64,000 bases of DNA from an uncultured bacterium. Its GTDB lineage: Bacteria > Abyssobacteria > SURF-5. The notes under the pieces were generated by a model, which saw nothing but the letters and a program-made list of their open reading frames with translations, did no database searches and was not told the DNA's origin. Positions 3,407-63,729 of the stretch are shown in pieces (position 1 is the first letter of the stretch; every line of letters begins with the position of its first letter). The stretch lies in the NCBI GenBank assembly GCA_964453435.1, contig CAYVQZ010000002.1, forward strand, positions 179,439 to 243,438, written 5' to 3'. Made by a program: the position numbers and the translations under genes.

Positions 3407-3437
3407 ACGGAATGTATCGGGGTTGGGAAACCGTCAA

Positions 3438-19922: not shown

Positions 19923-19931
19923 GGTGTTCTC

Positions 19932-32712: not shown

Positions 32713-35583
32713 ATGGCCGAAGAGACGAAACGCTGTCCATACTGCGACGAGGAAATCCGCGCCCGGGCCGTCAAGTGCAAGCATTGCGGCGCGATGCTCG
32801 ATGAATCCGTTCCCGCTCCTTCCGCCCCCGACCCCTTGGACAGTCATCCTACAATCCCTCCCGGCGAGATCAAGAGTATCCTCGGCGGCAGGTATGAACT
32901 GCTGGAGGAACTCGGGCGCGGCGGAATGGGAATCGTGTATAAAGCGCTCGACACGAAGCTCGACACGGTTGTCGCCATCAAACTCCTTCCCGAATACCTC
33001 GCGCGCGACAACCGGGGCATAAACATCCTGAAGCGCGAGGCGCTCGCGGCCATGAAGCTCTCGCATCCGAACATCATGAAGTTCTACCACTTCGAGGACC
33101 ATCCCGAGGGCAAGTTCCTCATTGTGGAGTATATCGAGGGGAAGACGCTGGACCAGATTCTCGATGAAAGCCCGGGGCATGCGCTTCCCGAGGAACAGGT
33201 CATCAAGTATGCCGTAGAGGCATGTAAGGGTTTGGAATACGCTCACTCCGAAGGCGTCATTCACAGAGACATCAAACCCTCCAACATCATGGTGGACGTT
33301 AATGGCCGGGTGAAGATAACCGATTTCGGCATCGCGCGGGTCCTGAAAGACTCCCACACCCGCCACACCGGCACGGTCACCAGCGGCACGCTCTTATACA
33401 TGAGCCCGGAACAGATACAGGGCGAGAAGTGCGATGCGCGGAGCGATATTTACTCATTCGGCATCAGCCTGTATGAGCTCTTGAGCGGAAACGCTCCGTT
33501 TTCCTCTGGGGACATCACTCATCAGCATATCAACAAGATGCCCGCTCCCATTCCCGATATCTCGGACAGGCTGAATGCAATCCTTGTCAGATGTCTCGAG
33601 AAGAAACCCGAGGACCGATTCCGGAGCGCGGGCGAACTGGCCGATGCTCTCGCGGGCAGGATGAGTGCAGAAACGACCGAAGGCTCCAAAGCTGCTCAGA
33701 AACCTCATGAGCCTTTGTCCGTCAAGCCAGGGATGAGTCGCGCCTGGGTTGTGGCAATGTTGTTTTTGATAGTTGCGCTTATCGGTGGGGCGGTCGCATA
33801 TAGATACGTGCAGGCCGGGAAAGCCGACGATGAGGCCTCCGGAGTTCGAGCACAACCGCCCGATTCGAACTTCAGAAAACTTACTCCGGAGGAAGTAAAG
33901 GCAATGGGCCTACCCCTACCTGGGGCAGAACCGGCCAGGCCGGTTATGGAACAAGACCAGTCGGGAGACGATACGTCAAGCCAACAGCCAGAGGAAGCAA
34001 AAAAGAAGGAAGCGGAAGAGAGGGCAGAGGAGCAATCCAAGGCTGGCGAAGAAGAACGCAGGCGGGAAGAGCTTGAGAAGCAGGGGCTGGCGCAGGAGCG
34101 CGAGACGGCGCTGACACAGGCCGTTGTCGAGGTGAAGGTGGCGATGGAGGCATCGCTCGAGGCTGCAAAAAGGGCGGAGGCGCCGAAGCATGCCTCATCC
34201 GAGTTCAATGTTGCCGAGCAGGAGAGAAAGAAGGCGGCTGAATATGACCAACGGGGAAACAGAGAACTGGCAAAGGCATCATACGAAAAAGCCAAGGCTG
34301 GATATGACAAGTCCGTTCAGTCAGCCAAACAGGAGAAGGCGCGAATAGAGGCCGAGAGGGTGGCGAAGCAGAAGGCAGAGGCCGAGTCTGCGAGGTCGGA
34401 GATGGCGGCCGCCAAAAGCAGGGCCGAATCGGAGGAAGCGCTAAAGTTTGCTGGCGCGGAGTACGAACCGGCACTTACTTCAGAGCGGGAAGCATCGAAT
34501 TCATTCATTAGCGGGTCTTATGTTGAGGCGAAGGCGAAATATATTTCGGCCAAGGATGGATACCTGAGGGCACTCAATTTGGCGAAGCAGATCCGTGCTG
34601 AAATGATCCTCGTCCCTGCAGGCGAATTCATGATGGGGAGTCCGTCCGGTAAAGGAGCTTATGACGAGTACCCGCAGCATAGGGTGTATGTGGATGCGTT
34701 TTATATGGATGAGTACGAGGTGACGATGAGTCAGTATATGGCGTTTATACGCGCGACTGGACATCGTGGTCTGCCTGATTGGGTTTCCAAGTATGCCCCG
34801 AGTGACAACTGTCCAGTGGTGGGGGTAAGCTGGGATGACGCGGTTGCGTATGCTCAGTGGGTTGGCAAGCGGTTGCCGACCGAGGCCGAGTGGGAGTATG
34901 CATGCAGGGCAGGGAGCGCGATGAAATACTCATTCGGCAATGACGAGGGCAGGCTGGGCGAGTACGCCTGGTATGACAAAAACTCCGGCGGGAAGACGCA
35001 TCCTGTAGGCCAGAAGAAGCCGAACAACTGGGGTTTGTACGACATGCACGGGAACGTGTGGGAGTGGTGCTCGGACTGGCATGATTCGAAATACTACCAA
35101 AGCAGCCCATCAAAGAATCCGAAAGGTCCAGCGAACGGTCGGTATCGTGTGCTTCGTGGTGGGTCGTGGGGCCACTATGCGAGTTACATTCGTTCGGCGT
35201 ACCGGGACATCGGCACACCCGTGGACACGCGTAGCGGCGTCGGCTTCCGCTGCGCTAAGGATATTAAAAATAAGCAGTATCCTGCTGCAGAATCGTCCTC
35301 AGAAGAGGTTGAAAATGAAGAAGCAATCCCCAAACCCAGCGCTCGCTATGCGTTGCAAGTTAGCTCAAGTCAAGATAAGGCGCTAGCCTACAGTCTTGTT
35401 GAGATCCTAGGGGTTCAAGGTTACGAAAGCTATGTGGAAGAAACTGCTCTCGATTCGGCATCGGGGACATGGTTCAGGGTTATGGTCGGCCCGTTTCAGG
35501 CTCGAGAAGAAGCTGAAGCAGTATTGAGAACACTAAATAAGGATTCGAGGTTTGCAGGTTTGTATTTGAGATATTTGCCCTGA
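32713..35583 (+). CDS. Ser/Thr protein kinase: N-terminal zinc ribbon + kinase + TM + coiled coil + FGE-sulfatase (SUMF1-like) domain + C-terminal SPOR domain
   Basis: Zinc ribbon CPYCDEEIRARAVKCKHCGAML. Kinase motifs GRGGMGIVYKA, HRDIKPSN, DFG. FGE-like domain from [14 protein letters not shown] to RVLRGGSW...GFRCAKD. SPOR-like tail (YALQVSS...WFRVMVGPFQAREEAEAV). Confidence 0.85.
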   Translation: MAEETKRCPYCDEEIRARAVKCKHCGAMLDESVPAPSAPDPLDSHPTIPPGEIKSILGGRYELLEELGRGGMGIVYKALDTKLDTVVAIKLLPEYLARDNRGINILKREALAAMKLSHPNIMKFYHFEDHPEGKFLIVEYIEGKTLDQILDESPGHALPEEQVIKYAVEACKGLEYAHSEGVIHRDIKPSNIMVDVNGRVKITDFGIARVLKDSHTRHTGTVTSGTLLYMSPEQIQGEKCDARSDIYSFGISLYELLSGNAPFSSGDITHQHINKMPAPIPDISDRLNAILVRCLEKKPEDRFRSAGELADALAGRMSAETTEGSKAAQKPHEPLSVKPGMSRAWVVAMLFLIVALIGGAVAYRYVQAGKADDEASGVRAQPPDSNFRKLTPEEVKAMGLPLPGAEPARPVMEQDQSGDDTSSQQPEEAKKKEAEERAEEQSKAGEEERRREELEKQGLAQERETALTQAVVEVKVAMEASLEAAKRAEAPKHASSEFNVAEQERKKAAEYDQRGNRELAKASYEKAKAGYDKSVQSAKQEKARIEAERVAKQKAEAESARSEMAAAKSRAESEEALKFAGAEYEPALTSEREASNSFISGSYVEAKAKYISAKDGYLRALNLAKQIRAEMILVPAGEFMMGSPSGKGAYDEYPQHRVYVDAFYMDEYEVTMSQYMAFIRATGHRGLPDWVSKYAPSDNCPVVGVSWDDAVAYAQWVGKRLPTEAEWEYACRAGSAMKYSFGNDEGRLGEYAWYDKNSGGKTHPVGQKKPNNWGLYDMHGNVWEWCSDWHDSKYYQSSPSKNPKGPANGRYRVLRGGSWGHYASYIRSAYRDIGTPVDTRSGVGFRCAKDIKNKQYPAAESSSEEVENEEAIPKPSARYALQVSSSQDKALAYSLVEILGVQGYESYVEETALDSASGTWFRVMVGPFQAREEAEAVLRTLNKDSRFAGLYLRYLP

Positions 35584-38536: not shown

Positions 38537-40840
38537 ATGGCTGCAGAGACAAAACGCTGTCCATACTGCAAGGAAGAAATCCTTGCCGATGCCATCCGAT
38601 GCAAGCATTGCCACATGATGCTTGATAAGGAACCTTCTGTTTCCGATGGATCGGACGTCGCCGCCGCCGGTCCCCTTGATGATGCGGCCACCCGGCTTCC
38701 CGATGATGTCGGCAGGGTTTTGTCCGGCCGATTCGAGATAAAAGAACTGATCGCCGAAGGAGGTTTCGGGAAGGTATATCGAGCTTACGACCGGGTGATG
38801 AAGATCGATGTCGCGATCAAGGAACTCTCCGACCGCTTTGAGAAGGACCGGAAGGCGGTCAGGTTCCTCCTCTCTGAGGCAAAGGCCGCGCACGCGCTGG
38901 CGCATCCTCGCATCGCGAAGTTCGATTACTACGACGAGAAGGGGAAATATCTCCTCATGGAATATGTTCCGGGCCTGGTGGTGGGGGAGACTGTGTGCCA
39001 CGACGTGGCCCAGTTGCTGGAGGCCCGGGGAGGGAAACTGTCGGAAGAGGAGGCGACCCGGATCATCCTGCAACTGCTCGAAGCGCTGCAATACGCCCAC
39101 GGTCTGCCCGAGCCGGTCATCCACCGCGACATCAAGCCGCAGAACCTGCTGCTGGACGCGCAGGGGAACGTGAAGGTATGCGACTTTGGCATCGCAAAGG
39201 TGGTGCGGGAGAGCGTGAGCCGGTATGGGATACCCGACACCAGCGGGACATTGATGTACATGAGTCCGGAACAGTGTGTGGGCAGGGGAGTGGACGCCCG
39301 CAGCGACATCTACTCTCTTGGCGTTACCTTGTACGAGCTTCTGAGCGGAAGGACGCCGTTCGAGGATGCCGAGGACGTCACCTATTGTCACATCAATGTG
39401 GAACCCGAGCCGATTCGAGGGGTGAGCGGGCGACTGAATGAAATCATTCTCAAATGCCTTGCCAAAAAGCCCGAAGATCGCTGGCAGAACGCCCGTGAGT
39501 TGGCCGACGCGCTGGAGGGGAGAATCGAGACGGATTCGGAACGCCGGGAGAAAGAACGAGCGCGAGCGGCGCTGAGGAAGCAGGAAGAAGAGCGAAAGCA
39601 ACGGGAGAAAGAAGAAGCCGAGCGCAAAGCAAAAGAAGAGGCTACGCGCCAGCGCGAGCTGGAAGAATCCCGCAGGCTCGGAGAAGAAGAGGAAAGAAGG
39701 CAAAGGGAGGCCGTCCGACGGCTTGACTTCCCAAGCGTTGGCCATGAGGAAGCTGCTCGAGAGTTCGAGGAAGAAAAGCGGAGAAAAGAGGCTGAGAGAA
39801 AAGCACGGGAAGAAGAGGAGGAGCGAGAAAAAAACCGAGCCGTCGTCGTGGTACTGGCGCTGATATTCTTTCTTGCGGTCGCGGTTATCGGTGGTATTTA
39901 CTATCAAGGACGGGTGCGGGAGGAAGGGGAGCGCGCCCTCCGCGAGGCGGCAGGGCGGTCTGAGCAGGAAGCGAAGCAGAAACAGGCGGAGACTGAGAAG
40001 ACGACCCAAAGAGAAGCCGTAAGACCCCAGCCTTCCCCGAAACCGGCGCCGGTTGTTGTTCCACAACCAAAGCCGACCGCTTCTCAAAAGGCGGCGGCGC
40101 AAGCTCCCGAGGGTATGGTTTTGATTCCCGCCGGCGAGTTCATGATGGGGAGCCTGTCGGGCGAGGGACACGATCATGAGCATCCGCAGCACCGTGTGTA
40201 TGTGGACGCGTTTTATATGGACAGGTATGAGGTGACGGTTGGCCAGTACAAGAGGTTTCTGAGCGCGACGGGACATCGAAGCCTTCCGGACTGGGTGTCC
40301 GAGTATTCTCGTACTGCCGACTGTCCTGTGGTGGGAGTGAGCTGGGATGACGCGGTGGCATACGCCCGCTGGGCTGGCAAGCGATTGCCGACGGAGGCCG
40401 AGTGGGAGTATGCGTGCCGGGCCGGGAGCGCGACGAAATACTCATTCGGAAACGACGAGGGCAGGCTCGGTGAGTATGCCTGGTACTATTCCAACTCCGG
40501 CCGAAAGACGCATCCGGTGGGCCAGAAGAAGCAGAACGCCTGGGGCCTGTATGACATGCACGGGAACGTGTGGGAATGGTGCTCGGACTGGTACGACAAG
40601 GATTATTATAGCAACAGCCCTTCACGGAACCCGAAGGGTCCAACGAACGGTCAGTATCGCGTGCTTCGCGGCGGTTCCTGGAACAATAACGCCAACAACG
40701 CGCGGGCGGCGAACCGGAACAACAACACGCCAACGAACACGAACAACAACAACGGGTTTCGGTGCGCCAGGACTGCTCGGAGAAACATCCTTCTCCTTGC
40801 CGGATTTCGGCAGTTCAAGGATTGCCGAAGCGCGCATTGA
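38537..40840 (+). CDS. Ser/Thr protein kinase: zinc ribbon + kinase + ER/K-rich helix + TM + FGE-sulfatase domain with Asn-rich low-complexity insertion
   Basis: About 95% nt identity to 35596..~36800 over zinc ribbon, kinase and ER/K. FGE domain [14 protein letters not shown]...[38 protein letters not shown]. Confidence 0.85.
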
Positions 40841-41039
40841 GGAGTCCAGACTCGCTCCTGCGCCGGCTTCGGGAAGCCGGCCGAAGATCACGCATGCCGG
40901 GGTTGGGCCGGTAGGGCGGGCACTACGGCTCGAACGCTCGGCCTCGGCGAATTTTTCTGGAGAAGTCGGGCTGCCTGAAGCGGGGCGTCGAACTGCGTTG
41001 TCATCCTGAACAAAGTGAAGGATCTCGCTTCTTAAGGAA

Positions 41040-43152: not shown

Positions 43153-43277
43153 AGTGGTTAAGGAGTCTGGAGTTAACGAAGTTGACAACCGTGAGGTCGA
43201 ATGATAAAATGTTCCGGCGCTCGAAAAAATTAACCTTCCAGATGATTGACTCACCCCCACAAATAGGAGGGCGCTCG

Positions 43278-44885: not shown

Positions 44886-44917
44886 GTTCGCATTTGGAAT
44901 GTAAAGGAGTGTGGCAA

Positions 44918-46006: not shown

Positions 46007-46018
46007 GGCAATATCATC

Positions 46019-47326: not shown

Positions 47327-47413
47327 GTGGGGTAGAGAAGATGCGATGACTTTCGTACTAGTTTCACAAAACATCAAATATTAGAGATTCGGATCACGCG
47401 TAGGAGGAATGTC

Positions 47414-49045: not shown

Positions 49046-49189
49046 TACACATATGTTCCCCGAAGAGAGGTACAGCTCAGAGTCGAATTGGCAGTGATAA
49101 AGCAGTAAACGGCGAGCTTGCCGGGAATGCTTCTTTTTCATGAAGGCGCCATGGAGGCGCCTTTGTTATTTAGGAAAATTGATATGGGA

Positions 49190-49330
49190 TTCGGCGAAAC
49201 AAAGATTCTTGGTCGAATGAATTCGACCTTACAGGGGATTGCCGATGCGGTGCGAATGGTCGAATGAATTCGACCCTACAAGGGGGCGCTTTTGTAGGCG
49301 CCAATTCATTCGCACGCTCTGTGACAATCG
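49190..49330. repeat. REP cluster
   Basis: ggtcgaatgaattcgaccttacaggggattgccgatgcggtgcgaatggtcgaatgaattcgaccctacaaggg...gtaggcgccaattcattcgcac. Confidence 0.85.
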
Positions 49331-49394
49331 AAGTAACTCGCGGATAGACAAGGAAGAATAGACGGAACCACGGATGGACGCAGATAAACACGGA

Positions 49395-49535
49395 GTGAGA
49401 TGGAATTTTTCGCCCTGTCATCCTGAACCCTTCGGCTTTGCTCAGGATAAACTTCGTGAAAGGTCTCGGGTTGCGGAGAAGTTATTGAGGTTTGTCATTC
49501 TGAGCGCAGCGAAGAATCTCGGTTATTTTCTCGTA
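49395..49535. repeat. MITE-like element copy (gtcatcctgaac...gctcaggataaacttcgtgaaaggtctcgggttgcggagaagttattga..gtcattctgagcgcagcgaagaatctc)
   Basis: About 95% identical to copies at 54810-55010 and 63762-63945; small ORFs in the track (..FVILSAAKNL..) are translations of it. Confidence 0.8.
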
Positions 49536-49579
49536 CTGCCGCGCGAGGCCGAATGAGATGCCGGATAGGATTTCACACT

Positions 49580-49830
49580 GTAGACATTTTTGGCCGAATA
49601 AATTCGGCCCTACAGGGGATTGCCGATGCGGTGCGAATGGTCGAATGAATTCGACCCTATCCCGCGAAACGCGGGACTTCGCTATCGCTCAGCGAAATCT
49701 GAGAAAATCTGCGGATGAAGAACATATGGTCGAATGAATTCGACCCTGCAGGCGGTGGGTTTAGGGCAAGACGAATTACGGCGTAGGGCAATGAAATTGT
49801 AGGCGCCAATTCATTCGCACAGATTGGATA
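49580..49830. repeat. REP cluster + 90-bp hairpin element
   Basis: ggccgaataaattcggccctacagggg...ggtcgaatgaattcgaccctatcccgcgaaacgcgggacttcgctatcgctcagcgaaatctgagaaaatctgcggatgaagaacatatggtcgaatgaattcgaccctgcagg...gtaggcgccaattcattcgcac. Confidence 0.85.
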
Positions 49831-49905
49831 GTATCTGCGGCTATCTGCAAGCGCCTGCGGTTTTGAAACAACTCTTAATTCGGGAATGTGCAGATAAAAA
49901 AACCA

Positions 49906-51924
49906 ATGCCTGACGAGACAAAAAAGTGTCTCTACTGCGGTGAAGAGATACTCGCCGTAGCCATTAAGTGCAAGCATTGCCAGAGCATGCTCGACACGGG
50001 AAGCGGCGACTCACTGGATGATGCTTCCACGCAGGTTCCGGGCATGGAAGACGAATCGCTCGACGGCGCCGCAACGATGCAACACGGGCAGGCCAGGAAA
50101 TTGCTCGCCGGAAGGTATGAGATACTGGAAGAACTCGGCCGGGGCGGGATGGGAATCGTGTTCAAGGGGCGAGATACAAAGCTCGGCACACTGGTGGCAA
50201 TCAAGCTTCTGTCGAAGGAACTGGAGAGCGACCTGCGCGGCATCGAGCTTTTGAAACAGGAAGCCCGCACGGCGATGGATCTCTCCCATCCGAATATTGT
50301 GAAGCTCTACAATTACGAGGAACATGCCGACGGAAGATTCCTCGTCATGGAGTATGTCGAGGGCAAAACGCTCGAGCAGGTCCTGATTCAGAAAAAGAAG
50401 CTGTCGGAGAGAAGGGTCAGGAAATATGCGGTGGGAATCTGCAACGCGCTCCACTACGCTCACTTCAAGGGAGTGATACACAGAGACATCAAGCCATCGA
50501 ATATCATGCTCGATAAGGACGGTAACATTAAAATCACCGATTTCGGCATCGCGCGCACCCTGAAGGACAGCCAGACCCGTCAAACCGGCAGGATTACGAG
50601 CGGCACCCTGCTGTATATGAGCCCGGAACAATTGATGGGCAAGGAGGCGGACGCGCGAAGCGACATCTATTCTCTCGGAATAACGCTGTACGAACTGCTG
50701 CGCGGCGAGCCGCCTTTCACGGGCGGCGACATATCCATGCAGCACCTAAAACGGCCGATAGACCCCATTCCTGAAGTGAGCGAGGAAATGAACCTCATCG
50801 TGCAGAACTGTTGCGCGAAGGAGCTTTCCAACCGCGCGCAGGGCGCCAGACAGGTCCGGAACGCGCTGCTCATTAAGCCCGAAGCAAAGGCAAAAAGGCC
50901 CTCCGGCACGAGTCAAAAGGAAAAACCATCGGTTGCCGTCGAGGCCAAAAGACAAATAGAGATACCTCTTAATAGGCTCGCTCCGCCGATACTTGTCGGC
51001 TGCCTGATAGTCGGCCTCGTCTTGTACCTGGCGAAAGGCCTCATCTCGACGAGTTCGGATGAAGTCACCCCGCAATTGATCATGCCGGTGCAACCTCAAC
51101 CTCAGGAGGGCATCAAACCTCCGCCAACCGAAGCGGAACTTGCCGAGCGGGAGAGTGTTCAAAAAGTCGTCAAAGTAAAGGTCGCCGCCGAGAATGCGAG
51201 GACACGGGCCAAGGTTTCAGGCGCCGAACGGTTCGCGCCTCAAAGCTGGCAGGCGGGCGAGCGGAAATATCAGGAAGGCTTGAGACACGACGGGCAGAAA
51301 GAGCACACGGCGGCGATACAGGCGTTCCAGGCAGCCGCTTCCGAATTCGGTAAATCCGAGACGGCGGCGAAAAAGCTTTCAGCCCAGAGGAAAGCCGAGG
51401 AGGCCCGCAAGGCCCGGCATGCGGCGGAAAAGGCGGAACAGGAGCGGCAAGAGCAACTCGCTGCCAAAAAGTTCGCCGAAGCCGCAAAACGAGTGATGGA
51501 GCAAAAACGGGCGGCCGCGAGCCAGGTGAGCGCGGCGAGCTATGCGCCCGGTGTCTGGAAAGCTGCGGAAGACGAGCGAATTAAGGGGGACGTGTGTCTG
51601 AACCAACAGGACTACAAGTCGGCCGAGAAATGCTATAGCGATGCAAAGAATGCATATCTTAAGGCCCGCGAGCATGCGCGGTTGGAAGCCCTTGACGAAC
51701 AACTGAAAAGCAAGCAAAAAGCAATTGACCAGCGTAAAGAACAGGCATACGATTGGCATATGGACAAGCTCCGACAACTTGAAAGAGCAAAGGCATCTCA
51801 AAGTTATTTTGTATCCGAAAACAACAGATATCACCGCGAACGGGAAGCTCTGGACCAGGAAGAACAGGACGTGCTGGAATGGTACTACAGACAGAAGGAT
51901 TACATTATCAATGATTACGACTGA
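49906..51924 (+). CDS. Ser/Thr protein kinase: zinc ribbon + kinase + TM + coiled coil
   Basis: MPDETKKCLYCGEEILAVAIKCKHCQSML parallels the other paralog N-termini. Kinase GRGGMGIVFKG, HRDIKPSN, DFG. TM LAPPILVGCLIVGLVLYL. Track start GTG 49888 rejected in favour of ATG 49906. Confidence 0.85.
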   Translation: MPDETKKCLYCGEEILAVAIKCKHCQSMLDTGSGDSLDDASTQVPGMEDESLDGAATMQHGQARKLLAGRYEILEELGRGGMGIVFKGRDTKLGTLVAIKLLSKELESDLRGIELLKQEARTAMDLSHPNIVKLYNYEEHADGRFLVMEYVEGKTLEQVLIQKKKLSERRVRKYAVGICNALHYAHFKGVIHRDIKPSNIMLDKDGNIKITDFGIARTLKDSQTRQTGRITSGTLLYMSPEQLMGKEADARSDIYSLGITLYELLRGEPPFTGGDISMQHLKRPIDPIPEVSEEMNLIVQNCCAKELSNRAQGARQVRNALLIKPEAKAKRPSGTSQKEKPSVAVEAKRQIEIPLNRLAPPILVGCLIVGLVLYLAKGLISTSSDEVTPQLIMPVQPQPQEGIKPPPTEAELAERESVQKVVKVKVAAENARTRAKVSGAERFAPQSWQAGERKYQEGLRHDGQKEHTAAIQAFQAAASEFGKSETAAKKLSAQRKAEEARKARHAAEKAEQERQEQLAAKKFAEAAKRVMEQKRAAASQVSAASYAPGVWKAAEDERIKGDVCLNQQDYKSAEKCYSDAKNAYLKAREHARLEALDEQLKSKQKAIDQRKEQAYDWHMDKLRQLERAKASQSYFVSENNRYHREREALDQEEQDVLEWYYRQKDYIINDYD

Positions 51925-51944
51925 CCAATGTGGGGTGAAGGCGC

Positions 51945-53513
51945 GTGAGCATTAAGTGTCTGCAATGCGGCGATCTCAACGATAATCCAGCGAAGTTCTG
52001 CATTCACTGCGGCGAGCAACTGCCGATTGAGGCCGTGTTTACGGATTTGCGATTGAGGCTGCTGACCCGCCAGGAACTGCGGATAGGAGAATTTTCGGTT
52101 TTTGACTGCGAGGTTCTGAACGATTCCTGCCTTCCGGTAACGAATGTGAGCCTCTCCCTGTCAAGTTCGGTATTCGTCAGGAAAAGCGAATGCACTGTCG
52201 ATCTCCTCGAAAGTGCGGCCGGCGAGCGAATCGAACTCGAAGTGGAAGCCGACTCTGAAAAAAAAGGGACCGTTCTTCTTTACATGGCTCTCCGCGGGCT
52301 TGTCGATGGAAAAATTCCGCTTTGTTATAAAGGGCAAACTCGCATAAATGCCGCGCAACCGGTAATCAAAAGAGACAGTGATCAGAAGAAAATCAATATC
52401 GTTGTGGGAAACGACGCGATTTTCGACAGGATTGTCGTGAACGCCGGCGACCCGGATGAGGCTCCGGCCCCTCAGGTCACGGAGGAATGGGTAACCATCC
52501 CATTGAAACGGGACCCGAGTTCCGAGAGGGACTGGTTCGAGCAAATTCGGGCAAAATCGCTTCGCGAATGCCCGTACTGCTCCTGCAAGATTGACGTGCG
52601 CGCCGGGCGATGCGAATTCTGTTCGGCGACGATGCCTTCCTGGTTTTCAAAGCGGCAGGAGGCGCTTCACGAGTTCCGGCATTCGCCACCGCCCCCGTCA
52701 CGGGTCGAGCTGACCATTCCTTCCCTGAACAATAAAGTCTTTCGTTTCTACGTCAACTCACGAATACGGTTTGGAAGACATTCAACGAATGATATTTCGA
52801 CTCTCTTCTATGACGAAAGTGGAGCTCTGGACAGAGACAAGAGCCTGGCAATTAGCAACGAGGCTGGCGAACTTATTGTGGATGGCGGACGCGCCAACCT
52901 GCTCAATATCAACAGATTTGGCGCGCAATTCACGACTCGGCATACGTCCGAATCGATAGAAATCCAGCAAAACGAGAGAATCGAGCTCAAGCAGGGTGGC
53001 ACATTAACGTTCAGTGACACGTGCAGCCTCGATATCAGCCTGTTCACCTCGCAACGCCAGAAAGATATGAGAACGAGCGTGTTGGATGCCCAAGAAGAGA
53101 AGCTTTCTCAAGTGAACTCGCCGCCCGCGCTCGAGCGCCAAAAACAGCGCAGCTCGTGCATTATCTGGCCTGAAAGGCACGTCGAGGCCGTCCGGATATG
53201 CCGGACCGATTCTCCTGCCAATGAGGAGCACATTCTCCTTCAGAACTCCGCCTCAATCGGGAGCGGGGAAAACTGTTGTGTCCAAATCCCGAAGTCAGGG
53301 GTGCAAAAGGTCCATGCTCGCATTATCCGATACGCCGACAGCATATGGTTCGAGAACTGTTCGGGGGCGCCATTGAAATTTGAGACGGGCTCTACGACCC
53401 GGCATCTCAAAAATGACGCGATAATGAAGGTCGAAGCCGATTGTACGGTGAAATTCGAATATCTTGAAACACACCTGAAATTCCGCAGGGAAGCAAGGAT
53501 GGAAGAGTTATGA
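51945..53513 (+). CDS. Zinc-ribbon + two FHA-like domains protein
   Basis: N-terminal CLQCGDLNDNPAKFCIHCG, internal CPYCSCK..CEFC, and FHA-like blocks (VFRFYVNSRIRFGRHSTNDI...; ..SIGSGENCCVQIPKSGVQKVHARIIRY..IWFENCSGAPLKFETG). GTG start. Confidence 0.55.
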   Translation: MSIKCLQCGDLNDNPAKFCIHCGEQLPIEAVFTDLRLRLLTRQELRIGEFSVFDCEVLNDSCLPVTNVSLSLSSSVFVRKSECTVDLLESAAGERIELEVEADSEKKGTVLLYMALRGLVDGKIPLCYKGQTRINAAQPVIKRDSDQKKINIVVGNDAIFDRIVVNAGDPDEAPAPQVTEEWVTIPLKRDPSSERDWFEQIRAKSLRECPYCSCKIDVRAGRCEFCSATMPSWFSKRQEALHEFRHSPPPPSRVELTIPSLNNKVFRFYVNSRIRFGRHSTNDISTLFYDESGALDRDKSLAISNEAGELIVDGGRANLLNINRFGAQFTTRHTSESIEIQQNERIELKQGGTLTFSDTCSLDISLFTSQRQKDMRTSVLDAQEEKLSQVNSPPALERQKQRSSCIIWPERHVEAVRICRTDSPANEEHILLQNSASIGSGENCCVQIPKSGVQKVHARIIRYADSIWFENCSGAPLKFETGSTTRHLKNDAIMKVEADCTVKFEYLETHLKFRREARMEEL

Positions 53514-54694
53514 ACCGACCAAATAGGAACACCTGCAAAAGCTGTGGCTCGCTCATCGCCCCGGACAAAAGCCTCTGCAGAAAATGTGAAATGAAAACAG
53601 GAGCGAAGCCTGGCGACATGAGTTCGAGAATCGCAGAGATGGAAGCGGCGACTTCACAGCGCCTGGCGGAAATGGAAAAGAGGCGGCAGGGCTTGGCCGA
53701 AAGCCTCGATACCTCGTTGCAGGAGAGATTGACGGCGAAGAAGAAAACCGAAACCCCCGCCTCCGTCGCTGAATCCCAGGAGACCCGAACGGCGGACGCC
53801 GACCCGCTCGAGGCGCAAAACCCCGGCGCGTTCGCCAAGCTCGAGCGGCTCTGCTCGGAGATCCGCCATTCGATTGTCGAGGCATGTTTTTACAACTTGA
53901 AGCTGCAATCTCAACTGTTGCCGAAAAAGGTCGGGTCAACTGATTTCATGCAGGAATTTCGTCGCAACCTCTCGCAGTTGCCTGCGGTCGCTTCCAGGTT
54001 ACAGGATTTTTTTAATCAAGAAATCGATGCACGCTTGAAGGTTTCTTCCCTTTTCAAGGAGGAATATGGGCGAGTAATGAATGGCCTGCAGCGCCTGAAG
54101 GGGACATCCTCCGAAAACGGCGAGCCAGCAGATGAATCGATCGAGGCCGCAAGGAACATTTCGGAATCGATTGACACGATTGTTGCGGGCCTGCAATCGA
54201 TTGACGACCGGGTCAGGAAGAATAAGGTTGACGTGAAAGACCTCCTTACAGGTGTTGCGGCGGCTTCGAGAGAGCGATGCGAGGAAGCCGGGGTGAAATT
54301 GTCCGTTCATTTACCCGATGGCTCCTTTCCCAGGGTGTATTCGACCGGAAGCCTCCTCTCGGACGTCCTCCACGAACTCATTCGCAATTCGCTCAAGCAT
54401 GCGTTCCCGCTGGCTGCCGCCGTGGAGAAATGCATTGAAATCGTTGCGGACATGAGCGAGGAACCCAACCGCTCGATCATCATTCAGGTCGCGGACAACG
54501 GGCAGGGATTCCCCTTGGAAACATTGGAGCGCGCTCGGACCGAAGAAACTCCGGCAAATGGCAATGGCTACGGGCTTCCCATGGTTATCCACAACATCGA
54601 GAACCTGCATGGAGGGCAGGTAACCTGCGACAGTTCACCGGAGAACGGAACGAAATTTGTCATCAGCATACCGACCAGGCCTCCGAAAGAATAA
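53510..54694 (+). CDS. Zinc-ribbon + coiled-coil + HATPase_c (GHKL) protein without recognisable His phospho-acceptor box
   Basis: N-terminal CKSCGSLIAPDKSLCRKCE. C-terminal N-box LHELIRNSLKHAF, G1 DNGQGFP, G2 GYGLPMV. ATGA overlap with the upstream FHA gene. Confidence 0.6.
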   Translation: MNRPNRNTCKSCGSLIAPDKSLCRKCEMKTGAKPGDMSSRIAEMEAATSQRLAEMEKRRQGLAESLDTSLQERLTAKKKTETPASVAESQETRTADADPLEAQNPGAFAKLERLCSEIRHSIVEACFYNLKLQSQLLPKKVGSTDFMQEFRRNLSQLPAVASRLQDFFNQEIDARLKVSSLFKEEYGRVMNGLQRLKGTSSENGEPADESIEAARNISESIDTIVAGLQSIDDRVRKNKVDVKDLLTGVAAASRERCEEAGVKLSVHLPDGSFPRVYSTGSLLSDVLHELIRNSLKHAFPLAAAVEKCIEIVADMSEEPNRSIIIQVADNGQGFPLETLERARTEETPANGNGYGLPMVIHNIENLHGGQVTCDSSPENGTKFVISIPTRPPKE

Positions 54695-55158: not shown

Positions 55159-58100
55159 ATGCCCGAAGATTTGAAAAATTGCCTTAATTGCAATACGCAA
55201 CTTGGCAAAGATGACTCCGTCTGCCCGAATTGCGGCCTCGAGGTTCATGTGGACCACTTGGACGACCAGCCGACCCGGCTGGCTGGCGGTCCACTCGTAG
55301 GCGGTGAGCCGGGGACCGGAGAATTGCTCGACGACGCCGAAACCGTATTAGGAGCGCAGAGAGAAGGGTTGGGATTTGATTCTTCGCTGACTCGTGAATC
55401 CGCAACCCGTAGCAGGTACCGGATACTCGACACACTCGGCGAGGGCGGTATGGGAGTGGTCTACAAGGCCGAGGACACCAAGCTCCGCCGCACCGTCGCG
55501 ATCAAAAGACTGCTTCCGAAAGCCGAAGCCCAGCAGAAAGGTCTCGACCGATTCCTGCGGGAGGCGCACGTTGTCGCAGGCCTGAACCACATCAACATCG
55601 TGAATGTCTTTGACATAGAGCGGGACGCGAAGGGTCCGTTCATCGTAATGGAGTACGTGGAAGGAAAGAGCCTGGAGAGGGTTATCGAAGAGGAAGGGAA
55701 GATTGAGGAATCACGGGCGATAGAGCTGTTCAAGCAGGTATGTCAGGCAATCGGGTATGCCCACAGAGTGGATATCATCCATCGAGATATAAAACCGGCA
55801 AACATTATCATTACTTCCGACGGCGTTCCCAAGGTGCTGGACTTCGGGCTGGCGCAGATGGCGACCGAGTCGGATCTCTCGAAGACGGGCTACGGCATGG
55901 GCACGATGTACTACATGCCGCCGGAGCAGACGAGGGACGCGAAGAATGTCGACCACCGGGCGGATATCTATGCGCTTGGCGCCACGCTGTATCACATGCT
56001 GACCGGCGAGCGTCCGAAGCTGATAAAGGCCGACAAACTCTCTGCGGGACTGAAGGCTTTGGTCTTCAAATGCATGGAAGAGAATCCGCGGGACAGATAT
56101 TTCAGCATATCCGAAATTCTTGTTGACGTAGAGTCTTCCGTTTCGGCAAAAGACTCGAAGCCACCGAGACTGGAGTCGGAGGACGCCTGCCACAACTGCG
56201 GCTATGTCAACCCCGAAAGCGCGCGTTTCTGCAAGGCATGCGGCACGGGTTTGTTCGAGAAATGCCCGAAATGCGAGGGCGAGAACCGAGTCGGCTCGAA
56301 ATACTGCATGTCGTGCGGGCTCAACATACCGGACTTCAGGAAAGCCCGTGAGCATACCCAGCGCGCGCAGGAGTATCTCAAAAATTACAAATATTCCCGC
56401 GCCATCAAGGAACTTAAAGCAGCCCTCCAACTTGAGGTCGGGAAGATAGAAATGGAAGCTTTGCTCGCGACAGCGGAAGAGAGCCTGGCAAAGCTCAATG
56501 CACACAAAGAGAGAGCCCAAACGCTCAAGCGCGAAGAGAAATATAAGGAAGCAGAGCAAGAAATCTTGAAGGCGCTCGAACTCGACCCATCCGATGATTC
56601 CGCCGAAGAACTGAGGAGGGAAATCGGCGCTCTCATTCAGGAAGAACATCTGGCTAAAGCCGAGGCTCTGAGACGTGAATACAAATTTGAGGAGGCGGCA
56701 GCCGAATATCAACTGGTCCTGGAGCGGAACTCGGCCCATGAGAGAGCAATAAAGGCGCATAAAGAGGTCCGGGAAATCCTCGATAGTATTCTGAACCACA
56801 AAAAGAGAGCGGACGCGTTGCTCGAGCAGAAGAGATATCAGCAAGCGATAGATGAATATGAACAGATACTGAGCCTTGCGCCGACTGATGCATATGCCAA
56901 GGGTTCTGTAAAGAAGTGCCAGAAGCTACTTGAGGAAATTGAGTCGCTCAACAGGAAAGCGAACGAGGCGCTTGCCGACAAAGCATTTCCAGACGCCATA
57001 CAATTTCTGCAAAGGCTTCTCAATCTTTCTGACGATGTCGAGTCAGTTACGCATAAGCTCGAATTAGCGCGAAGCGCGCAAAAGCAAATAGTTGCCCATC
57101 TCAAGGAGGGCCGCAGACTTGCAGATAACGGCCGATACGATGAGGCGATAGAAGAGTACCGGAAAGTCCTCTCTGTTGACAGAGAACACTCGAAAGCCTC
57201 CGAGGAACTGGCTCGAATCGGGCAAACTGTTAGAGAAATAGAGAAGCTGGAAGAAGACCTGACGGCAAGCCTGGACAGGGGAGACTTTGCCGAAGCGGTT
57301 CGCCTCATACAGGCCCTGCAAGAGCACAAGCGTGATACGAAGTGGGCGGAGAACCTGTTGCAGGAGGCAAAGTCAAAGGAGGCAAGGATACGGGCGCACT
57401 ACAACGCCGCGACCAATTGGTATGGTGTCAGGAAGTATTGCAAATCAATCAGAGAAGCCGAGCGCATACTCGAAATAGCGCCATCCCATGCGGGGGCGTT
57501 GGAGATAATCGAGAAATCGAGAAGAAAAATCTCATTAATGTTGAAAGGCTTCGCGGCACTCGTGATACTCGGTCTCTCAATCGCGTTGGTCGCATACATC
57601 TCTTATCAAATTCGCAATTATTCAAAATATGTGGAGCAGGCCGAGGAAGCATTCAAGCAGGAAAAATGGGTGGAGGCGAGCAGCTACTGCATGGAGGCGC
57701 TGGAGCTCAATTCCGACGGCAAGAGAGCACTACAACTCTTGGCTGAACTGGCGCCGGCGTTGGAGACAATTGCCCAAGATGCCCGAGAGGAAGCCTTGAG
57801 CGCAAGAAAAACCGCTGAAGATGCGATGGCGCCTCTCTATGCCAAAACGACTTACGAGAGCGCCTCCAGGAGCCATGCCGAGGCGGATTCCCATTTTGGA
57901 GCAAACGGTTTTGGCCCGGCTGCACAAGCGTACAGGGGCGCCGCCGAGCAGTATCAGAACGCAACGAGCGAGGCAAAAACCGCAATGGCCAAAGCGAAGG
58001 AAGAGGCTGACAGGGAAAAATCAGCGCTCGGGGAGACGAAAAACAAGATTGATGCGCAGAAAGCAGGAAGCTATGCCCGTGAATCATTCGAGGCGGGCAA

Positions 58101-59182: not shown

Positions 59183-61645
59183 ATGGCTGAAGACCTGAAG
59201 ATATGTCGGAATTGCGGCGCGCCGCTGAGCGAGAACCAGTTGATGTGCCCGGCCTGCGGAACGCGATGGGGCACGGATGCACTCGATGCTGAACCGACGC
59301 AACTGGCCGGCCACGCAAAAATCCAGGGCGAGTCGCTCGATGACGCCGAGACCATACTGAAAGAGCAGGGCATCGGGCCGGGACTTGATTCCACGGTAAC
59401 CAGCGAATCCGCAACCCGTAGCAGGTACCGGATACTCGACACACTCGGCGAGGGCGGTATGGGAGTGGTCTACAAGGCCGAGGACACCAAGCTCCGCCGC
59501 ACCGTCGCGATCAAAAGACTGCTTCCGAAAGCCGAAGCCCAGCAGAAAGGTCTCGACCGATTCCTGCGGGAGGCGCACGTTGTCGCAGGCCTGAACCACA
59601 TCAACATCGTGAATGTCTTTGACATAGAGCGGGACGCGAAGGGTCCGTTCATCGTAATGGAGTACGTGGAAGGAAAGAGCCTGGAGAGGGTTATCGAAGA
59701 GGAAGGGAAGATTGAGGAATCACGGGCGATAGAGCTGTTCAAGCAGGTATGTCAGGCAATCGGGTATGCCCACAGAGTGGATATCATCCATCGAGATATA
59801 AAACCGGCAAACATTATCATTACTTCCGACGGCGTTCCCAAGGTGCTGGACTTCGGGCTGGCGCAGATGGCGACCGAGTCGGATCTCTCGAAGACGGGCT
59901 ACGGCATGGGCACGATGTACTACATGCCGCCGGAGCAGACGAGGGACGCGAAGAATGTCGACCACCGGGCGGATATCTATGCGCTTGGCGCCACGCTGTA
60001 TCACATGCTGACCGGCGAGCGTCCGAAGCTGATAAAGGCCGACAAACTCTCTGCGGGACTGAAGGCTTTGGTCTTCAAATGCATGGAAGAGAATCCGCGG
60101 GACAGATATTTCAGCATATCCGAAATTCTTGTTGACGTAGAGTCTTCCGTTTCGGCAAAAGACTCGAAGCCACCGAGACTGGAGTCGGAGGACGCCTGCC
60201 ACAACTGCGGCTATGTCAACCCCGAAAGCGCGCGTTTCTGCAAGGCATGCGGCACGGGTTTGTTCGAGAAATGCCCGAAATGCGAGGGCGAGAACCGGGT
60301 AGGCTCGAAATACTGCATGTCGTGCGGGCTGAACATTCCTGACTTTAAGAAATCTCAGGAGCATCTGCAGCGCGCCCAGGAATACCTGAAGGAATACAAG
60401 TACTCGCGCGCGATAAAGGAACTGAAGGCCGCGCTGGAGCTCGAGGTCGAGAAGGCGGAGCTTCAAAGCCTTCTCTCGGAAGCCCAGGAAAAACTTTCGC
60501 GGCTTAACGAGCACCGAGAGAAGGCCGAAGTCCAGAAGCAGGATGGAAGCTACGAAGAAGCCGAACAAGCGGTTCTCGCAGCGATTGACTTGGACCCACA
60601 TGATGAAACGCTTCATTTGTTAAAGGGTGACATCCAGAATTTGATTCAGGAGATGCATCTGCGCGAAGCGCGCGCCAAGGCGGAACAAGAAGATTATGAA
60701 GGGGCGCTTTGTGGATGCGATAAGGTGTTCAAGTACAATCCGAACAATCGTGAGGCGAGCGAATTGCGTGACGAAGTTCTCGCCAACACAAAGAGGAAGG
60801 TCGAATTCATCTGTGCGAAGATAAAAGAGAGTCGCGCTCGCATTAACATCGAAGTCGCCGAAGGGCTGCGTCATTCGAGGTATATGCAGGGGGAGAAAGA
60901 ATGCCGACTTGCCGAAGAGGCGTTAAACTGTGGAGAGATAGGAAAGGCGCTTCGTTATTACAATCAATCGCTGGAGCAATATAGCGCTGCGGCGCGGGAA
61001 CTGGCTATTTATGATGCTTTGCCGCTCAAGTTTGAGAACTCTGTCGGCATGGAATTTGTTCTGATACCGGCGGGCGAGTTCATGATGGGCAGCCCTGAGG
61101 GCGAGGGAGACTATGATGAGCGCCCGCAACACAAAGTGATAATAACCAGACCCTTCTATATGCAGACCACTCCCGTTACACAAGCGCAGTGGAAGAAGGT
61201 GATTGGCAGGAAATTCTTGAGGAGAACCAAAAACCCATCGTACTTCAAGGGGGATGACCTGCCTGTGGAGAGAGTCAGTTGGAAAGATGCGCAGAGATTT
61301 CTGGAAAAGCTGAATCAGAAGGAACAAAAGGGAAGGTATCGCCTGCCGACGGAGGCCGAGTGGGAGTACGCATGCCGCGCCGGAAGCGCGACGAAATACT
61401 CATTCGGCAATGACGAGGGCAGGCTTGGCGAGTACGCCTGGTATGATAAAAACTCCGGCGGAAAAACGCACCCGGTGGGCCAGAAGAAGCCGAACGCCTG
61501 GGGCCTGTATGACATGCACGGCAACGTGTGGGAGTGGTGCTCGGACTGGTACGACAAGGACTACTATCGTAACAGCCCTTCACGGAACCCGAAGGGTCCA
61601 ACGAACGGTCGGTATCGCGTGCTTCGCGGCGGCTCGTGGTCTTAG
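59183..61645 (+). CDS. Ser/Thr protein kinase: zinc ribbon + kinase + zinc-ribbon module + TPR + FGE-sulfatase domain interrupted by in-frame TAG
   Basis: Nucleotides 59405-60297 are 100% identical to 55396-56288. FGE domain [18 protein letters not shown]...RVLRGGSWS then TAG at 61643-61645. Confidence 0.8.
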   Translation: MAEDLKICRNCGAPLSENQLMCPACGTRWGTDALDAEPTQLAGHAKIQGESLDDAETILKEQGIGPGLDSTVTSESATRSRYRILDTLGEGGMGVVYKAEDTKLRRTVAIKRLLPKAEAQQKGLDRFLREAHVVAGLNHINIVNVFDIERDAKGPFIVMEYVEGKSLERVIEEEGKIEESRAIELFKQVCQAIGYAHRVDIIHRDIKPANIIITSDGVPKVLDFGLAQMATESDLSKTGYGMGTMYYMPPEQTRDAKNVDHRADIYALGATLYHMLTGERPKLIKADKLSAGLKALVFKCMEENPRDRYFSISEILVDVESSVSAKDSKPPRLESEDACHNCGYVNPESARFCKACGTGLFEKCPKCEGENRVGSKYCMSCGLNIPDFKKSQEHLQRAQEYLKEYKYSRAIKELKAALELEVEKAELQSLLSEAQEKLSRLNEHREKAEVQKQDGSYEEAEQAVLAAIDLDPHDETLHLLKGDIQNLIQEMHLREARAKAEQEDYEGALCGCDKVFKYNPNNREASELRDEVLANTKRKVEFICAKIKESRARINIEVAEGLRHSRYMQGEKECRLAEEALNCGEIGKALRYYNQSLEQYSAAARELAIYDALPLKFENSVGMEFVLIPAGEFMMGSPEGEGDYDERPQHKVIITRPFYMQTTPVTQAQWKKVIGRKFLRRTKNPSYFKGDDLPVERVSWKDAQRFLEKLNQKEQKGRYRLPTEAEWEYACRAGSATKYSFGNDEGRLGEYAWYDKNSGGKTHPVGQKKPNAWGLYDMHGNVWEWCSDWYDKDYYRNSPSRNPKGPTNGRYRVLRGGSWS

Positions 61646-61735
61646 GCCGGGGGCGTGCGGGCGGCGCTCCGGTACGGCGACACGCCGACGGGCGCGAGCA
61701 GCAACGTCGGTTTTCGTTGCGCCCAGGATAAATAA
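61646..61735 (+). other. In-frame post-stop continuation encoding the conserved end of the FGE-sulfatase domain (AGGVRAALRYGDTPTGASSNVGFRCAQDK*)
   Basis: Same frame as the kinase ORF, immediately after the TAG. It matches the paralog C-termini (..[14 protein letters not shown] / ..RSAYRDIGTP..VGFRCAKD). Confidence 0.7.
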
Positions 61736-61799
61736 TTACCACTTAGCTCCTTTAGAACTTTACCAGTTGCAATGCCGCGCAATGCGCGGCATCGAAAAT

Positions 61800-62238: not shown

Positions 62239-63729
62239 ATGGCTAACATACTGATCGTTGACGACGCCATCGACAACCTAAAACTGGTTCTCGAGCACTC
62301 CCTCGAAGAGCATCAACTCTGTTACGCGAAGAGCGGCTCCGAGGCGCTTTCAGCCTTGCAGGAATCGCCCGACACGGACCTCGTTCTCCTCGATGTCAAG
62401 ATGCCTCCCGAGTTCGCCGACGCGGAAGAAGGTGAGGGAATCGAGGTGCTCAAGCGGATAAAGCAGCTCAATCCATCTCTTCCGGTCATTATGCTTACGG
62501 TGTACCACGACATCGATACTGCGGTCGAGGCAACCAAGGAAGGCGCGTTCCATTATCTTACGAAGCCGCCGGACCTCGACAAGCTTCGCGATGCGATTGA
62601 GCGCGCATTGGAAAATCGAAATCTCAGGGAAGAGGTGGGCCATCTTCGCCGGACCGTCGACGCGCTCACTCGCCTTCGCGGTTCGAAAGGCGCGAAGCGG
62701 GAGAGGTTGTCGTTCGGAGACCTGATTGGTCGGAGCCGGAAGATGCAGTCTCTGTTCGACGAGATCGAACAGGTGGCGGGCATGGATGTGTCTGTGCTCC
62801 TTCTCGGTGAGACCGGAACAGGCAAGGATGTCGTCGCCCGCGAAATCCATCGGCGCAGCCCGAGGAACAAGGGTCCGTTTCTTGCCGTGAACTGTTCCGC
62901 GCTTCCCGAGAATCTCCTCGAAAGCCAGATGTTCGGGCACCGGAAAGGCGCATTCACGGGAGCTGTCCGGGACCAGGTCGGCGATTTCGAGCTGGCGAAT
63001 GCGGGAACCATTTTCCTCGATGAAATAGGCGACATGCCGCTTTCTCTCCAGGCGAAGCTGTTGCGCGTGCTGCAGGACGGGCTGGTGAGGCCGCTCGGGG
63101 CAACCAAACCGGTGAAAGTCGATGTGCGGGTAATAAGCGCGACGAACAAGAACCTGAACGACCTCGTCTCCCGCGGGCTGTTTCGCGAGGACCTTTTCTA
63201 CCGCCTCAACGTGGTCCCCATCAGCATATCCCCGCTTCGGGAGAGACCCGAGGATATCCCCCTGCTCGCCGAACACTTCCTCAAGAAGTTCTCATCGGAA
63301 CTCGGCAAGCGGGTTTCCGGATTCACGAGCGACGCTTTGTCAAAGCTGGAGTCTCACAACTGGCCCGGAAACGTGCGCGAACTGGAAAACATTATCAAGC
63401 GCTCGATTGTTCTGGCCCGCTCCGACACGATTGACGGTTCGGACGTCATACTGGGCGAATCGCCTGCAGTTCCCGTCCGTGATGACATCTGGAAAAGCAT
63501 CCTATCGGGCGAGAATCCCATAGATGACCTCACCAGGTTCCGGAATCTTCATGGAGAGAACGCTTTAAAAGACGTGCTCACCAGGGCAATCCAGGAAAAG
63601 AACGATATCCGCGCCGCTGGCAAGCTGATCGGCTATCTCGGCCATTCCGACGACAAGACACGGTACGATAACCTGCGCAAATGGATCAGCCGCCTCGGCA
63701 TCTCGACGCGGGATATCAGGAGGAGTTAG
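62239..63729 (+). CDS. Sigma-54-dependent Fis-family transcriptional regulator (receiver + AAA+ + HTH)
   Basis: Receiver ILIVDDA...LVLLDVKMP, Walker A GETGTGKD, GAFTGA motif, C-terminal HTH. Confidence 0.85.
   Translation: MANILIVDDAIDNLKLVLEHSLEEHQLCYAKSGSEALSALQESPDTDLVLLDVKMPPEFADAEEGEGIEVLKRIKQLNPSLPVIMLTVYHDIDTAVEATKEGAFHYLTKPPDLDKLRDAIERALENRNLREEVGHLRRTVDALTRLRGSKGAKRERLSFGDLIGRSRKMQSLFDEIEQVAGMDVSVLLLGETGTGKDVVAREIHRRSPRNKGPFLAVNCSALPENLLESQMFGHRKGAFTGAVRDQVGDFELANAGTIFLDEIGDMPLSLQAKLLRVLQDGLVRPLGATKPVKVDVRVISATNKNLNDLVSRGLFREDLFYRLNVVPISISPLRERPEDIPLLAEHFLKKFSSELGKRVSGFTSDALSKLESHNWPGNVRELENIIKRSIVLARSDTIDGSDVILGESPAVPVRDDIWKSILSGENPIDDLTRFRNLHGENALKDVLTRAIQEKNDIRAAGKLIGYLGHSDDKTRYDNLRKWISRLGISTRDIRRS

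Follow-up and report, generated by a model that had tools for sequence, protein, structure and literature searches.

An in-frame TAG codon in the predicted retroelement-diversified region of a protein kinase gene of an uncultured Abyssobacteria bacterium

Introduction

Why does an otherwise intact kinase gene stop inside its last domain, and how could its premature stop codon have arisen? The question is raised by a 64,000-nucleotide (nt) stretch of DNA (the window) from an uncultured bacterium (Abyssobacteria; SURF-5), which corresponds to positions 179,439 to 243,438 of contig CAYVQZ010000002.1 (assembly GCA_964453435.1). Six Ser/Thr kinases were recognized in it by Pkinase matches, i.e. K1 (starting at position 32713), K2 (35596), K3 (38537), K4 (49888), K5 (55159) and K6 (59183), and the open reading frame (ORF) of K6 is closed by a TAG. 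We propose, with a probability of roughly 0.75, that K6 is a target of a diversity-generating retroelement (DGR), that its variable region (VR) derives from adenine-mutagenic copying of a template repeat (TR) close to that of K3, and that the TAG is a genuine stop at a templated, hypervariable codon. In DGRs, as outlined in passages of two reports (PMC7826257, PMC6182149), a TR that itself stays invariant is copied by an RT (reverse transcriptase) that makes errors at adenines, and the resulting cDNA replaces the VR.

Results and Discussion

The premature stop codon of K6

The features of the 3′ end of K6 are as follows:

59183..61645, + strand: K6, Ser/Thr kinase with zinc ribbons, TPR/coiled coil and a predicted formylglycine-generating enzyme (FGE)-type lectin domain, truncated by TAG
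61643..61645, + strand: in-frame TAG of K6, aligned with the third Asn codon (AAC) of the template
61646..61735, + strand: post-stop segment of K6, 29 open codons and the original TAA terminator

Inspection of this region confirmed the in-frame TAG that the first-pass annotation had reported in the sixth kinase. The ORF encodes 820 amino acids (aa) with matches to Pkinase (3.4e-51) and to FGE-sulfatase (4e-52), the latter covering only profile positions 4-222 of 255. Beyond the TAG the same frame stays open for 29 codons (AGGVRAALRYGDTPTGASSNVGFRCAQDK, 61646-61732), up to a TAA at 61733-61735. An open tail of this length is not improbable by chance in DNA of 55% GC; the lesion is considered recent because the post-stop peptide retains the scaffold residues R..A.R...TP......GFRCA of K1, K3 and database homologs, in agreement with the earlier remark that this peptide matches the domain ends of the paralogs.

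Two other claims of that annotation had to be revised. The stop was placed inside the conserved FGE-sulfatase motif; it is in fact the second codon past the conserved GGSW, a templated-adenine codon at a position that is hypervariable among homologs, in what is predicted to be a non-catalytic lectin fold. Nor does it simply replace a single codon: directly after TGG, K6 additionally lacks one codon that is present in K1, in K3 and in all 49 related templates. Compared with the AAC of K3, the TAG has a T at the first template A, keeps the second A, and has a G opposite the template C, which is a non-adenine difference.

Programmed readthrough, or recoding of the TAG by pyrrolysine or a suppressor tRNA, would yield the full-length protein, and the 29 intact codons with conserved scaffold residues speak for it, but a recent lesion explains the intact tail equally well. 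TAG terminates two other well-supported genes of the window (2/33), namely a radical SAM gene (419-2179) and a sigma-54 regulator gene (62239-63729), the product of the latter having an identical counterpart among called proteins, on a Logan contig of 1.8 kb. Genetic-code reassignment is thus unlikely, as had already been argued. Moreover, no pyl genes were found among the approximately 45 annotated ORFs of the window (Pfam), and Rfam revealed no recoding element. Readthrough or recoding is therefore hardly credible.

Adenine-specific differences between K3 and K6

The VR and TR features of the three related kinases are as follows:

61612..61729, + strand: putative K6 VR, with a conserved 5′ arm, TGG at 61637-39, the hypervariable tract at 61640-61708, GFRCA at 61709-61723 and the homology end GCCCAGGAT
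35167..35262, + strand: VR-like segment of K1, internal, followed by a SPOR domain, more diverged and without a 3′ hairpin
38537..40840, + strand: K3, full-length kinase with an FGE-type domain, whose 3′ end is a TR read in frame
40654..40774, + strand: DGR TR in K3, with 16 AAY (AAC/AAT) codons

Over the 86 columns following TGG, K6 differs from K3 at 21 of the 30 K3 adenines, compared with 5 of the 53 other bases (Fisher p=1.8e-8). The changes respect codon structure: in the 13 AAY codons of K3, positions 1/2 are altered in 12 and position 3 in only 2. K1 shows the same pattern in weaker form (21/32 A versus 15/54 non-A, p=7.5e-4), with all of its 14 AAY codons changed at positions 1/2 and 4/14 at position 3. 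The combination of adenine-specific variation with preserved third positions is the signature of a DGR.

Among 50 TRs compared with the K6 VR, that of K3, which lies 21 kb upstream of the TAG, is by far the closest: it shows 5 non-A mismatches over 87 nt, where every other TR shows at least 10. In canonical TR/VR pairs, homology begins 20-30 nt 5′ of TGG and extends about 95 nt 3′ of it, and A-site changes occur in the first A-rich codons after W in nearly every pair. Since such a tract covers the position of the K6 TAG, the stop lies inside the retrohoming tract.

The 3′ end of K3 as a template repeat

A database query with the last 74 residues of K3 returned 179 protein matches, all of them short (about 40-130 aa; 41-129 aa for the 120 listed), with no long fusion comparable to that of K3 with its TR among those listed. 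The matches inspected are translated stand-alone TRs, up to 92% identical to the query. On contigs L017/L018, L019 and L020, an FGE-domain target is followed by genes for bAvd and a reverse transcriptase (RT; RVT_1), and then by a short TR ORF. Using the four RTs of these loci as queries, we obtained 80 more loci of the same RT lineage (85 loci in total), and a TR of the K3 family is present in 49 of the 85, usually directly 3′ of the RT gene. A side result concerns public annotation: among the short ORFs that bear the name "formylglycine-generating enzyme" or "SUMF1/EgtB/PvdO family nonheme iron enzyme", many are no genes but DGR TRs in translation (P0121-P0240), which amounts to a systematic mis-annotation.

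The 3′ flanks of these TRs share a common layout, comprised of a hairpin, GYGYGC...GTCCAGRC...CTCCTG, hairpin P1, CCGAAKAW, a long stem P2 enclosing GGTAG...CGAAMG, and a U-run. The corresponding feature of K3 is as follows:

40774..40960, + strand: conserved DGR RNA element 3′ of the K3 TR, with a hairpin, GCGCGC..GTCCAGAC..CTCCTG, P1 (40862-40881), CCGAAGAT (40881-40888), P2 (40895-40949; GGTAG..TCGAACG) and a U-run

A profile hidden Markov model was built from 46 TR 3′ flanks, with both the TR itself and the window left out. Searched against the 64 kb, it gave a single match (40774-40924, + strand, E=4.6e-12), directly after the K3 TR. Single-sequence nhmmer searches of the window with TR flanks gave no match; only the 46-sequence profile did. 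RNAalifold applied to 25 flanks recovered the inner stem of P2, each of its six pairs showing compensatory changes, and the K3 copy folds into P1 and P2. Its folding-energy z-score is unremarkable (-1.1), and the structure is supported because of the covariation and the profile match, not because of energy. The last ~120 nt of K3 and the next ~190 nt thus constitute a complete TR with its 3′ RNA element. The K3 protein itself would bear an all-Asn "naive" binding site and 22 residues encoded by the RNA element.

These data bear on the simplest alternative, namely that K6 is an ordinary paralog with an ordinary nonsense mutation, and that the variability of the K1, K3 and K6 tails reflects normal divergence or positive selection, without any retroelement. 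The asymmetry between A and non-A sites and the conserved third positions of hypervariable codons are not expected from selection, and the K3 tail is a bona fide TR with a conserved 3′ RNA element. The lack of an RT gene in the window, together with a non-A divergence in the VR equal to that of the flank, would suit this explanation, which we nevertheless regard as very improbable.

Because the canonical gene order is target(VR)-Avd-RT-TR, the fusion of K3 with a TR is the product expected from a deletion between VR and TR, which are direct repeats. It may equally represent a collapse of the VR and TR repeats by the assembler, a point to which we return below.

Sequence downstream of the K6 variable region

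After the VR, many canonical loci have a stop codon and then a pyrimidine-rich spacer of the CYTTTAC type, and about half of those inspected also have a GC hairpin with a 3-nt loop, located 58-63 nt after GFR in four cases (L017, L024, L042, L062). K6 has a similar arrangement, in which GCCCAGGAT-AAA-TAA is followed by two elements:

61736..61771, + strand: pyrimidine-rich spacer of K6, TTACCACTTAGCTCCTTTAGAACTTTACC..., resembling, by eye only, the CYTTTAC-repeat spacers after canonical VRs
61772..61792, + strand: candidate DGR target-recognition hairpin, 9 bp, GC-rich, ATGCCGCGC-AAT-GCGCGGCAT, about 60 nt after GFR (offset 60)

Only 11 hairpins of this kind occur in the 64 kb, and that of K6 is the longest; it is not terminator-like and dominates the local DNA fold (centroid). 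Its loop is AAT, versus G-N-A in most canonical hairpins (one has ATA and one a 4-nt loop). The argument for a target site rests on the position and rarity of this hairpin, because a profile of canonical VR 3′ flanks gave no match in the window. K1 lacks such 3′ elements and continues into a SPOR domain.

The C-terminal domain

The PF03781 "FGE-sulfatase" domain is located at the C-terminal end of K1 (32713-35583), K3 and K6. The best PDB sequence match of the K6 domain is TvpA (2Y3C), a DGR variable protein of Treponema denticola (E=8.6e-37), which ranks ahead of all true FGEs. An AlphaFold model of the intact K1 domain (pLDDT 88.7, pTM 0.88) gave TM scores of 0.82-0.85 to FGE/TvpA, and the domain of K1, K3 and K6 is accordingly modelled as an FGE-type C-type-lectin (CLec) fold. 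Catalytic FGEs contain a Cys pair in the C-terminal loop after the GGS motif (Cys336/Cys341 of human FGE). In K1, K3 and K6 there is no Cys between GGSW and GFRC, this loop being the hypervariable tract, and for this reason we consider the three to be non-catalytic binding domains.

The K6 product stops at the equivalent of residue 203 of the 233-residue domain. Mapped on the K1 model, the missing part comprises most of the variable surface and the three terminal beta segments, including GFRCA. The TAG would thus shorten the lectin fold by ~30 residues and leave the kinase, zinc-ribbon and coiled-coil parts intact. The truncated lectin domain is probably unable to fold or bind; K6 may still act as a sensor-less kinase, since K2, K4 and K5 are kinases without any FGE domain.

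Search for a reverse transcriptase, Avd and a sibling template

The window was searched for other DGR components. No ORF containing YxDD was found by motif search, none of the ~45 ORFs matched RVT_1 (Pfam), and tblastn against the window with four RTs and three bAvd proteins of the lineage gave only E>0.1 and E>0.3, respectively. Two candidates were rejected: (i) an Avd-like ORF (PF05635; 19242-19922), which is situated inside a Type I restriction-modification (R-M) operon, 19 kb from K3, and is unlike the bAvd of the lineage, and (ii) a group II intron (31523-31756) as a source of RT, which is a remnant with the RT core deleted. This degenerate intron (31523-32436), located just upstream of K1, consists of ribozyme domains D1-D4 (RF02005, 118 bits), after which the intron-encoded protein is represented by N-terminal and maturase-like C-terminal fragments; no D5/D6 match was found in it.

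A sibling TR was sought beyond the window. An A-masked TR/VR DNA pattern gave only chance matches in GC-rich genomes when compared with genome contigs, and a longer pattern gave 0 matches in metagenome contigs. Exact-protein look-ups of K6 and K3 returned no record. The homolog search with the K6 domain yielded best identities of 57-70% and no orthologs, and the contexts of homologs P0006 and P0002 contain no RT within 10 kb.

Origin of the TAG codon

According to our proposal, the C-terminal VR of K6 would have been written by adenine-mutagenic reverse transcription of a K3-related TR. As to how the TAG itself arose, we infer two possible routes: (a) one round of retrohoming in which a sibling TR with a stop-capable Lys codon (AAA/AAG) at the TAG position served as template, or (b) a point change from TAC to TAG, acquired later by a VR no longer being rewritten, the local cassette having lost Avd-RT upon the VR × TR recombination that would have created the K3 fusion.

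Route (a) is favoured by the 5′ non-A mismatches of K6, where TAG, GGG and GTG stand at positions at which sibling TRs have AAA (4/49), AGG (16/49) and GTG (5/49). A TR with these codons could give all three by adenine-only changes. AAY codons normally preclude stops (PMC7826257); a stop-capable codon is nonetheless found in 8 of the 49 related TRs. In favour of route (b), neither RT nor Avd is encoded in the window, and TAC→TAG and GGC→GGG each require one C→G change. We place route (b) slightly above route (a). A single 3-nt deletion from a K3-like NNC NNT NNC tract was also considered as the source of the TAG and rejected, as no placement removes the C→G mismatch.

Several observations weigh against our proposal. 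There is no DGR RT or Avd within the 64 kb, and the sibling TR invoked for K6 was not observed. Over the TR span, K6 and the K3 TR are separated by 7 non-A mismatches and by 3-nt and 1-nt indels, whereas 27 canonical pairs show 0-3 mismatches and no indels; the K3 TR is thus not the exact template of K6, which on sequence grounds implies a sibling TR or post-homing drift. The non-A divergence between K6 and K3 in the VR (9.4%) equals the ordinary paralog divergence in the flank (9.1%). The G of TAG is not obtainable from the K3 AAC by adenine mutagenesis, and none of the 27 canonical VRs contains a stop codon. To these may be added the profile of canonical VR flanks, which failed to match the window.

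One rival explanation is an assembly or consensus artefact, in which a heterogeneous population of VRs leads the assembler, or the polishing of long reads, to an incorrect or chimeric sequence, so that no cell has the TAG or the adjacent 3-nt deletion. All K6 anomalies, i.e. the one-codon deletion, C→G at the third positions 61645 and 61651, and one C→T, fall within the initial 21 nt of the hypervariable tract, the part in which variants of the population diverge; the next 52 nt contain no non-A mismatch to K3. An unrelated metagenome homolog (P0012 on contig L102, JGI 3300035099) is frameshifted at precisely this spot: at 3330-3460 the frame is broken at the start of the hypervariable tract (RVLRGG|GELQRH*), and an intact VR, with the tail ...CHSADRGWNRPTFHGDYNGFRAARSSE, is read in another frame. 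The absence of stops from the 27 canonical VRs and the possible assembly collapse behind the K3 fusion point the same way. On the other hand, AAC-templated codons would still end in C in a chimera of valid variants, so that a mosaic by itself gives no TAG, and a 64-kb contig spanning several kinase modules of 90-95% identity argues for a reasonably robust assembly. We judge an artefact to be unlikely, though it deserves to be taken seriously.

A further variant of the DGR explanation is that the TAG represents a reversible OFF state made by the DGR, with the template carried at the 3′ end of the K3 mRNA (where the priming element is intact) and the RT encoded elsewhere. Stop-capable template codons would then act as a stochastic on/off switch for each receptor, beyond the switching of specificity. 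We find this rather improbable. Even on the reading that we prefer, i.e. a genuine TAG in a DGR-derived VR, the next homing event could reverse the lesion, provided that an RT is still active in trans, as reported for remote targets (PMC5758913, PMC10907252), since the 3′ end of the VR and the hairpin are retained. The label "nascent pseudogene", offered by the first-pass annotation, may therefore be too strong for K6, as a VR lesion could be overwritten by the next retrohoming if the genome encodes an RT at another site. Its view of a stop that comes too early in a gene intact in other respects, and the nonsense mutation or sequence error listed there as options, remain valid; the DGR context of the VR had been missed.

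Genomic neighbourhood

The kinase genes share closely related N-terminal modules: K5 and K6 are 94.8% identical over 1121 nt (55159-56500 versus 59183-60500), and K2 and K3 89.9% identical over 1435 nt (35596-37040 versus 38537-39980). These modules appear to have been recently duplicated or converted. The C-terminal halves within each pair are unrelated (TPR/coiled coil/transmembrane versus FGE domain), and the similar N-terminal modules combined with unrelated C-terminal halves point to domain shuffling within the kinase cluster.

An IS200-like Y1 transposase gene (41278-41736), possibly a REP-associated tyrosine transposase (RAYT), is located downstream of K3, at a distance of 440 nt. Short repeats resembling repetitive extragenic palindromes (REP) or miniature inverted-repeat transposable elements (MITE) form three families (TCCCGCGAAACGCGGGA, GGTCGAATGAATTCG and GTCATTCTGAG) and occupy the intergenic regions around the kinases and also the sequence directly downstream of the K6 hairpin. 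Their positions are as follows:

38300, 41795, 49660, 61999: REP/MITE-like repeats, first group
38369, 49211, 49258, 49639, 49728, 59119, 61873, 62067: REP/MITE-like repeats, second group
41072, 49494, 54907, 54984, 59008, 61850, 63763, 63837, 63914: REP/MITE-like repeats, third group

The Type I R-M operon mentioned above (16096-24535, - strand) contains unusual insertions, namely the PF05635 four-helix-bundle (Avd/IVP-like) gene at 19242-19922, a TIR-domain gene (20159-21262), and an HsdM with a GIY-YIG nuclease domain at its C-terminus. Between K3 and K5 (46019-54694) there are genes with kinase-like N-terminal double zinc ribbons at 46019, 47414 (with an SPFH/Band-7 domain) and 51945, and one for a histidine-kinase-like ATPase at 53510. 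Lipoprotein-like genes (FlgT_N, CsgG/LpoB-like) are present at 43182-46006. The zinc-ribbon, ATPase and lipoprotein-like genes (43182-54694) may form one signalling or envelope module.

Comparison with known systems

Canonical target-bAvd-RT-TR cassettes (L017-L020 and 45 others; Poribacteria, Nitrospinae and metagenomes) carry TRs of the K3 family, W-NNN-x-N/R-N-x-R-x-A-N-R-N-R/N-N-x-P-x-N-R/T-NNN-x-GFR. The window has the same 3′ RNA element and a similar layout 3′ of the VR, with a candidate GC hairpin ~60 nt after GFR. It departs from these cassettes in that they contain Avd and RT between target and TR, and their VRs have 0-3 non-A mismatches and no stop.

In the DGR of Bordetella phage BPP-1, the VR is located at the C-terminus of the target protein within a CLec fold, a target hairpin is situated downstream of this region, and priming makes use of a structured RNA located 3′ of the TR. 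The structured element of the Avd-RT-TR lineage is a possible functional counterpart of this spacer/priming RNA. The gene orders differ: in BPP-1 (mtd-avd-TR-brt) the TR precedes the RT, whereas in canonical cassettes of the K3 TR family it follows it. The BPP-1 target is a phage receptor-binding protein, and its AAY-only design precludes stops. Shared features are adenine-specific mutagenesis and an AAY-rich template (PMC7826257).

K6 resembles TvpA of T. denticola in its predicted FGE-type CLec fold with the VR at the extreme C-terminus (TM 0.82), although TvpA is a lipoprotein and not a kinase. The Treponema DGR has several paralogous targets far from the RT (PMC5758913). In that element both RT and TR have been identified and the targets match at non-A sites; in the window no RT was found, and the only TR, which is joined to a target paralog, does not match K6 exactly.

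Passages of the report on Thiohalocapsa PB-PSB1 (PMC10907252) describe (i) multi-locus cellular DGRs that diversify CLec/FGE domains in fusions with signalling modules, among them protein kinases, (ii) "degenerate" loci without RT and/or TR, (iii) diversification in trans, judged by non-adenine identity, and (iv) loci reshaped by transposons and MITE-like repeats. The Y1 transposase and REP-like repeats around K3 and K6 are a parallel to these passages. As described there, PB-PSB1 differs from the window in keeping one complete locus per class, with activity shown by population data. Neither a TR fused in frame to a full-length target nor an in-frame stop in a VR appears in the keyword-retrieved passages of this report ("stop codon" 0, "frameshift" 0).

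The K6 stop offers a case of what may happen to DGR targets when hypermutation or decay goes wrong, with a nonsense allele in the VR and an RT-less template that forms one gene with a target paralog. Should the stop prove real in vivo, it would indicate that DGR VRs are not fully protected from stops (8/49 lineage templates being stop-capable) and that VR × TR recombination is a possible way for DGR cassettes to lose their Avd-RT by self-deletion. In the annotation of metagenome assemblies, caution is called for where an FGE-type VR begins with a premature stop or a frameshift, and short "SUMF1/EgtB/PvdO family" ORFs should be viewed as often being translated template repeats.

Earlier reports (PMC10907252, PMC11661182, PMC5758913) have described DGR targets that combine a kinase with a CLec domain, as well as remote targets and degenerate loci that lack an RT. 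Less usual in the locus described here are the nonsense allele in the VR and the TR fused in frame to a full-length target paralog.

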